The notes beneath the pieces are model-generated. The model saw only the letters and a program-made list of their open reading frames with translations. It was not told the DNA's origin and searched no databases. This document shows, piece by piece, positions 51,107 to 51,646 of a DNA stretch of 64,000 bases (position 1 is the stretch's first letter; each line of letters starts with the position of its first letter). Source of the DNA: Escherichia phage 92CQ; sequence record PV682554.1. One strand, given 5' to 3'. A program made the position numbers and the translations under genes.

Positions 51107-51442
51107 ATGTGTGTTCCTCTTAGCAGTCCACTGCTGTTAGAATTTTACAAAGCATGGATGGAAGATCATTCCTCAATGCATCGTGAGAATGTTGGTTTGT
51201 GTAATTGCCTTATGGATTACCTGGCAACCACTATGTCAAAGAAAAAACCTACGGAAGAAGATATAGAATATTTCAAGATGGTTCGTAGCAAAACGCTGGA
51301 AGAGATGAAACTGCAATTCACGTGTGCTGGGCTATCCTCCTTCCTACCCTTTAATTATGATCTTCTGTGTTATGAAGATGAAGGTAAGACACATTCTTGC
51401 CATACCAACCCAAAGAGATTGCAGTGGGTGAAAGACCTATAA
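51107..51442 (+). CDS. hypothetical protein, paralog family A (LxFYxxW...GLCxCLxDY)
   Basis: Start set at MCVPLSS with RBS aaggag; track start was 51050; paralogs at 53574 and 54548. Confidence 0.55.
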   Translation: MCVPLSSPLLLEFYKAWMEDHSSMHRENVGLCNCLMDYLATTMSKKKPTEEDIEYFKMVRSKTLEEMKLQFTCAGLSSFLPFNYDLLCYEDEGKTHSCHTNPKRLQWVKDL

Positions 51443-51646
51443 AGCATGGATTGCCAACTATCCTGCAATGAATCGCACAACGAGTGGCTTATGTGGTTGT
51501 CTAGATTATGTAGATGATTTTGTTGGTGAGACAACTAGAGAAGAAGATAGAAGATGGCGGGATAGTTTGTTGGACCGTTTGAAATATGAAATTCTTCATG
51601 GGTGAAAGACAGAATTGAAGATGCAAATAATGCTTGCATTGAATAG
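51432..51646 (+). pseudogene. truncated, frameshifted duplicate of paralog family A
   Basis: Encodes YKAWIANYPAMNRTTSGLCGCLDYVDDF... (parallels YKAWMEDHSSMHRENVGLCNCLMDY upstream), lacks the family N-terminus; family C-terminus WVKDRIED continues in the +1 frame after HG-stop. Confidence 0.5.

Follow-up and report, generated by a model that had tools for sequence, protein, structure and literature searches.

A probable pseudogene relic of the second gene of an old tandem PHROG 2510 pair in a Justusliebigvirus-like phage

Directly behind a small gene of the PHROG 2510 family, the genome of Escherichia phage 92CQ (sequence record PV682554.1) encodes part of a family protein once more, without a beginning and in two reading frames. 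Is this a young copy of the neighbouring gene, an intact gene disguised by sequencing errors, or the remainder of a different gene? We analysed a 64,000-nucleotide stretch of this phage (the window), in which the first family gene, A1, occupies positions 51107-51442 of the plus strand (PHROG 2510, E = 1.2e-20) and the second sequence follows at 51437-51646 on the same strand. Megablast searches with positions 50900-52200 and 40000-64000 against 50,697 phage records assigned the window to a phAPEC8-like E. coli myophage (Stephanstirmvirinae, genus Justusliebigvirus). With about 96% identity, ESCO32, Paula, Nernie and KKE7M were its best relatives, and none of the 50,697 records contained an identical genome. 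A1 and the sequence behind it sit in a long series of small plus-strand ORFs with no assigned functions. The next intact gene (51717-52175, plus strand, 152 aa) forms the conserved right flank of what turned out to be a variable locus. Further downstream on the plus strand lie A3 (53574-53924), an intact paralog of the same family (E = 2.8e-25) with about 40% protein identity to A1, and A4 (54548-55132, 194 aa), a distant paralog that matches phrog_27059 (E = 3e-139) and PHROG 2510 (E = 3.5e-17) and combines a family domain in its N-terminal part with a C-terminal extension.

The first-pass annotation had described DNA directly after A1 that re-encodes the middle of the family protein without its N-terminus, followed by a C-terminal WVKDRIED motif that resumes in another frame after an HG-stop. 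Both descriptions were borne out with small coordinate corrections. The sequence YKAW begins at 51438, so that its codons TAT AAA overlap the A1 stop codon TAA (51440-51442). From there, family residues 16-68 are encoded in frame 3 (YKAWIANYPAMNRTTSGLCGCLDYVDDFVGETTREEDRRWRDSLLDRLKYEILHG) up to a TGA at 51603-51605, and residues 108-122 follow in frame 2 at 51599-51646 (WVKDRIEDANNACIE, then a stop). When the intact protein of A2, the second family gene of related phages, was compared with the window by tblastn, the two pieces were recovered with E = 6e-28. For the A2 allele of phage phAPEC8, E was 5.5e-31, and identity reached 96% in residues 16-68 and 100% in residues 108-122. By these values, the similarity of the relic to the family is far beyond chance.

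At the nucleotide level, the kept DNA is base-for-base the same allele as phAPEC8 gp19 (phAPEC8_0019, AFU62595.1, 122 aa, a hypothetical protein), whose orthologs in Phapecoctavirus and Justusliebigvirus occupy the same genomic place as the relic, directly after the first family gene. Three remnant blocks can be distinguished, all on the plus strand. Block 1 (51437-51502) is an exact copy of gp19 nt 45-110 and block 2 (51503-51592) of nt 114-203, while block 3 (51593-51646) corresponds to nt 315-369 but has only one of the two As of nt 320-321; within it, 51593-51597 equal nt 315-319 and 51598-51645 match nt 321-368 exactly. Altogether, 156/156 aligned bases agree in the N-terminal part of the relic, with one 3-nt gap, and 53/54 in the C-terminal part, the sole substitution being the last (third) base of the stop codon. 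Aligned with the adjacent A1, the N-terminal part of the relic has 104 matches, 51 mismatches and 13 gap positions, which is only about 67% identity over aligned bases, and the A1 and A2 proteins share about 46% of their residues. Base-level comparison identifies the relic as what is left of A2, a paralog different from A1 and orthologous to phAPEC8 gp19.

This comparison also decides on the age of the copy. The first-pass annotation had proposed a recent partial duplication that is now pseudogenising. A pseudogenising second copy is indeed what we found, but it was not recently copied from A1. The relic adjoins A1 and has family motifs in common with it (repeat family D5, 38 nt at 71%); it is nevertheless closer to gp19 than to A1 and so does not classify as a recent tandem duplicate of the latter. 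The exact-block match and the base counts against gp19 refute a recent duplication of A1, and in two phage genera this genomic place is taken by intact orthologs of A2. We therefore give a recent, now decaying tandem copy of A1 practically no credence.

Four indels separate the relic from an intact A1/A2 pair. Lesion 1 is a junction deletion that begins just behind the WVKD of A1 and reaches as far as nt 44 of A2. Lost with it are the A1 tail and stop codon, any intervening ORF and A2 nt 1-44, and thereby the ribosome-binding site, the start codon and the first 15 codons of A2. The resulting fusion is out of frame, and A1 therefore stops two codons on (WVKD-L-stop). Lesion 2, a 3-nt deletion before block 2 (nt 111-113), turns GLCGCLVDY into GLCGCLDY. 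Lesion 3 is an in-frame deletion of 111 nt after block 2 (A2 nt 204-314, 37 codons), and lesion 4 is the 1-nt deletion just before WVKD (one A of nt 320-321, CAATGG to CATGG), which puts the WVKDRIEDANNACIE tail in frame 2 and lets the premature TGA arise in the relic frame. Microhomology at the deletion junctions amounts to about 1 nt at most. Unlike gp19, the relic thus has no start codon, a broken frame and no conserved core.

The weight of these losses became apparent from an alignment of 139 family members. C34 is invariant among them, S9, L12, F15, Y16, G32, L33, E67, Q71, F72, L77, P82, F83, N102, R105, W108 and V109 are nearly invariant, and H100 is conserved in 105 of the 139. Lesion 3 spans M68 to R105, the most conserved core, and costs 14 nearly invariant residues (M68, Q71, F72, A75, G76, L77, P82, F83, N84, Y90, E93, H100, N102 and R105). 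Of the family-conserved positions, only the Y16 to C34 block, E67 and W108-V109 are kept. Family membership is defined here by a profile match across the domain of about 110 residues, with the conserved S9, F15-Y16, G32-L33-C34, E67 to F72, P82-F83-N84, H100, N102, R105 and W108-V109. The conceptual translation of the relic had no PHROG match at E <= 0.01, and by this definition the relic is a derivative of a PHROG 2510 member and not itself a member. It combines homology to a gene that is intact elsewhere with lesions that disable start, frame and core, the hallmarks of a pseudogene.

Could the phage nevertheless carry an intact second copy that was obscured during sequencing or assembly? A sequencing frameshift in a real second copy had been offered as the alternative to decay, and the 1-nt and 3-nt deletions are indeed of read-error size. 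However, adding back the missing A yields only YKAW...KYEILQWVKDRIEDANNACIE and a stop, an open frame of 69 codons without start and core. This product would still be short of the 15 N-terminal codons, one codon of GLCGCL(V)DY, the 37 core codons and a ribosome-binding site; a single sequencing error therefore cannot explain the structure. An artefact would need four separate lesions, among them the loss of 111 nt and a junction deletion of 90 nt or more. The 12-nt repeats at the locus (see below) are too short to mislead an assembler, and the flanking genes are intact. Small indels relative to KKE7M over 23 kb are mostly paired in divergent stretches or intergenic, unlike the frameshifts that an error-prone assembly would scatter over the sequence, although the identity of 96% limits the weight of this comparison. 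In favour of an artefact, the allele is known from this one assembly. In a megablast search of the 50,697 phage records, which come from INPHARED, positions 51380-51670 aligned with every listed record (60) as two or three separate segments, and in none of these 60 did the window's form occur in one piece. Exact searches found junction 1 nowhere in IMG/VR, the JGI metagenomes or the GTDB genomes, and junction 2 nowhere in IMG/VR. Taken together, we regard an artefact as very improbable.

The relic might also still be used, either as a micro-protein of 45 aa (MNRTTSGLCGC...ILHG) or through a programmed frameshift into the WVKDRIED tail. An ATG-initiated ORF for the former exists at 51468-51605, and we found no terminator-like site between A1 and the 152-aa gene at 51717-52175. 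The ATG at 51468 is, however, the only one in the relic frame, and it lacks a Shine-Dalgarno sequence, being preceded by CCAACTATCCTGCA. Exact matches to the 45-aa product were absent from public genomes and assemblies, and the fragment is devoid of most family-conserved residues. Programmed frameshifting was rejected as a candidate: the sequence at the shift (GAAATTCTTCATGGGTGA) contains no slippery heptamer of the type X XXY YYZ at 51592-51605, and the relatives examined all have one continuous frame there. Continued use of the relic thus appears hardly probable. It has neither a start codon nor a ribosome-binding site, and its frame is interrupted, so that a protein is most probably not made from it. 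As no terminator-like site lies between A1, the relic and the next gene, the relic is probably transcribed but untranslated.

The same junction also altered A1. Its product (MCVPLSS...RLQWVKDL) starts behind an AAGGAG ribosome-binding site at the start codon annotated in relatives. Its end differs: here the protein reads RLQWVKDL, in relatives with two or three genes at the locus it ends with WVKDRIADSCKGV, and in relatives with a hybrid gene with WVKDRIEDANNACIE. Among the 139 aligned family members, the clipped A1 is the sole protein that ends before position 113. As it lacks the conserved R/H112, I113 and D/E115, clipped A1 may be impaired too. An exact-protein index, in which products from two possible starts were looked up, contained no match to it. 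In annotations, A1 should be flagged as C-terminally clipped.

If A2 is the source, intact copies should be sought where the relic now lies. The comparison with related genomes that had been suggested for this purpose did reveal them, with intact A2 beside A1 in outra, inny, phAPEC8, EC_OE_11 and AMO3598. Reading the locus at sequence level in 12 relatives, we distinguished six arrangements besides the relic form of the window. A1 and A2 are separated by a 51-aa ORF in EC_OE_11 and AMO3598, and they overlap by a few bases in outra, inny and phAPEC8. KKE7M and EC.P2 have a single A1::A2 hybrid joined inside TGGGTGAAAGAC; in ALITA the hybrid junction lies 8 nt further on and the gene is additionally split at an A-run. 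A single A2-type gene with another N-terminus is found in muut and ZYD, and no family gene at this place in alia and cardinal. The counterpart of 51380-51700 is about 626 bp long where three genes are present; with two genes, it is shorter by about 140 bp.

The intervening 51-aa ORF (positions 869-1024 of the retrieved EC_OE_11 locus and 669-824 of that of AMO3598) encodes a hydrophobic, membrane-like product (MLELIGIVWLMIKAGFVGFGLLIILCMFLSAIQAFFYLLGRILKLGGDNEK) that matched neither Pfam nor PHROG. In outra, only its last codons survive, at about 855-885 of the retrieved locus, where they are fused to the A1 tail; from its sequence, this fusion is another deletion scar. The right flank varies as well. 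The 152-aa gene is a mosaic whose N-terminus matches phrog_6496 and whose C-terminus matches phrog_7775 and phrog_31753. In relatives, the gene has either this form or, in alia, muut, EC.P2, inny and ALITA, a length of 105 aa and another N-terminus; in phAPEC8 the N-terminal part is a separate gene of 69 aa.

Among the phage records, 143 matched A2: 81 carried a copy of at least 60% identity and 62 only more distant paralogs. Those matches of at least 60% identity that were inspected among the 60 records listed each cover nearly the whole A2 protein. Metagenome protein clusters add more chimeras (P0013, P0017, P0018 and P0020). The varied arrangements, scars and chimeras thus show that deletions and recombination between paralogs have recurred at this locus. 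Four records with about 97% identity to this E. coli phage group over the locus (MG065639, MG065645, MG065656 and MG065689) are labelled as Campylobacter phages with C. jejuni as host, and these host labels look doubtful.

The hybrids illustrate how close the window is to a further rearrangement. TGGGTGAAAGAC occurs exactly twice in the window (0.01 expected), with starts 174 nt (58 codons) apart. The left copy (51425-51436, plus strand) encodes WVKD in the context of A1, and the right copy (51599-51610, plus strand) lies in its native A2 context. With the relic bracketed by these exact 12-nt repeats, one more short-homology deletion would therefore give a clean A1::A2 hybrid: removal of 51437-51610 (174 nt) in silico left an ORF of 121 aa identical to the hybrid protein of KKE7M. 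In KKE7M (XLQ29848.1) and EC.P2, an A1 body is joined to an A2 tail at the shared WVKD, derived from the same unstable pair, and megablast revealed further A1::A2 hybrids in JohannJBalmer, BME3, J-01 and JLBYU50. Hybrids of the KKE7M type are clean, in-frame and full-length, whereas the window has a clipped A1 and, unlike the hybrids, retains 162 nt of defunct A2 DNA that separate the two repeat copies. The hybrid family gene of ALITA (PP359570.1, positions 695-1064 of the retrieved locus) is annotated as two ORFs because its A-run is 4 nt longer than that of KKE7M (AAAGAAAAAAAAAACC versus AAAGAAAAAACC), which reflects either genuine decay or a sequencing error in the homopolymer.

The last base of the left repeat bears on the route by which the relic arose. 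It is C (GAC), as in A2 and hybrid alleles, while the four two-copy A1 alleles that were sampled carry T (GAT) without exception; a simple deletion from one of these two-copy parents would not predict the C at 51436. Illegitimate recombination could instead have joined a KKE7M-type hybrid, after its WVKD (GAC), to nt 45 of A2 from a co-infecting phAPEC8-type phage. The structure would then be an A2 insertion into a hybrid gene and not a series of deletions from a two-copy ancestor. Junction 1 would require no untemplated base, and the 100% identity of the excision product to the KKE7M hybrid also speaks for this route. Relic and tail are also of the phAPEC8 allele type (AGAATTGAAG) and not of the Justusliebigvirus type (AGAATCGAAG). 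However, a single T-to-C transition accounts for GAC equally well, and the three internal A2 lesions would still need separate events. A further crossover would be required at the end of A2, since the downstream flank is of the Justusliebigvirus type. We regard this route as possible rather than probable. On either route, the allele type of relic and tail implies exchange with a phAPEC8-like lineage.

The explanation we favour, with high though not complete confidence, is that 51437-51646 is a non-functional pseudogene relic of A2, the second gene of an old tandem PHROG 2510 pair. In phAPEC8-like and Justusliebigvirus phages, this pair belongs to an accessory region made up of small ORFs. The duplication that gave rise to A1 and A2 is old, because both genes stand intact side by side in Justusliebigvirus and in Phapecoctavirus. 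Judged from this distribution, it predates the split of the two phage genera, and the event in the window is a loss and not a gain.

For the loss itself we infer the following course. In the ancestor, an A2 allele of the phAPEC8 type would have stood behind A1, and deletions with little or no junction homology would have struck this pair. One deletion would have fused A1 out of frame to A2, taking the last codons and stop of A1 together with the first 44 nt of A2, so that A1 came to end in WVKDL. Others would have removed 3 nt in the GLCGCLVDY motif, 111 nt of the conserved core and 1 nt just before WVKD. The relic would since have been a passive part of the transcript, which would continue from A1 into the 152-aa gene. 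Four indels without substitutions are unusual for slow decay, and one complex event may have taken the place of successive deletions.

An unlikely extension of this picture is that A1/A2 is an actively shuffling locus, in which recombination at shared motifs and between co-infecting lineages repeatedly yields chimeric PHROG 2510 proteins, possibly under host-driven selection. In this scenario, the window would have captured a rare intermediate from which one-step excision could restore a full-length hybrid, and the clipping would have put A1 in a reversible 'off' state and not in a dead end.

What kind of protein was lost? All four family genes, A1, A2, A3 and A4, match PHROG 2510 with E values from 1e-17 to 1e-25, and phrog_6418 and phrog_27059 are related families. 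Among 1.84 billion representative proteins, a search with the family profile returned 825 clusters at 50% identity (E <= 0.001). Many members are about 200-245 aa long and have two family domains (P0025, P0028, P0041, P0045, P0090, P0111 and P0112), and 15 stretches of the 2115-aa P0027 matched the family domain. Tandem copies are thus a recurring theme of the family and are often fused in one gene. For intact A2, AlphaFold gave a confident, all-helical model with five helices (pLDDT 91.4, pTM 0.84). Foldseek found nothing for this model in the Protein Data Bank at E <= 0.001, and among the viral models of BFVD it matched only uncharacterised phage proteins. When the sequences of the Protein Data Bank were searched with a profile, no hit fell below E = 0.3. 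Pfam had no match for A1 or A2 and only a sub-threshold one for A3 (ATG11, E = 0.035); NCBIfam had none for A2 and A4 and only a sub-threshold one for A3 (E = 0.017). Longer family members have no informative extra Pfam domain except one DUF551. The literature on phAPEC8 hypervariability, phrog_2510 and Justusliebigvirus accessory genes offered nothing useful on the function of the family. With its size, confident helical fold and invariant cysteine, the family is worth characterising; the relic says nothing on its role.

Large lytic phages such as the T4-like phages have variable accessory-gene regions, known as 'hyperplastic regions'. The locus described here resembles them in that small early-type ORFs vary by deletion, replacement and recombination between otherwise collinear genomes. 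Unlike in those regions, the intermediate of loss, a recognisable gene relic, is still visible, and to our knowledge compact phage genomes seldom show gene relics. The case is an ordinary but cleanly documented instance of gene decay, set in a lytic phage at an accessory locus that is hypervariable. It offers a base-level view of a tandem accessory gene pair being lost or fused, in a graded series of three genes, two genes, relic, hybrid and none, with the window at the relic stage. In annotations, 51437-51646 should be marked as a gene remnant and not as small ORFs.

The roughly 1.7 kb upstream of A1 (49340-51050) contain no ORF of more than 60 aa and show repeated AAATGATAATCATT motifs. Copies lie at 49584, 49642, 50533 and 50728; the best is found at 50531-50549 and another at 39086-39104. 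The sequence at 50531 (GCAAATGATAATCATTATC) differs at 2 of 19 positions from GATAATGATAATCATTATC, the Fur-box consensus of E. coli. With up to three mismatches, four Fur-box-like matches occur in the window, against 0.03 expected. By this resemblance, the AAATGATAATCATT motifs could be candidate iron-responsive or other repressor-binding sites in a regulatory region of the phage.
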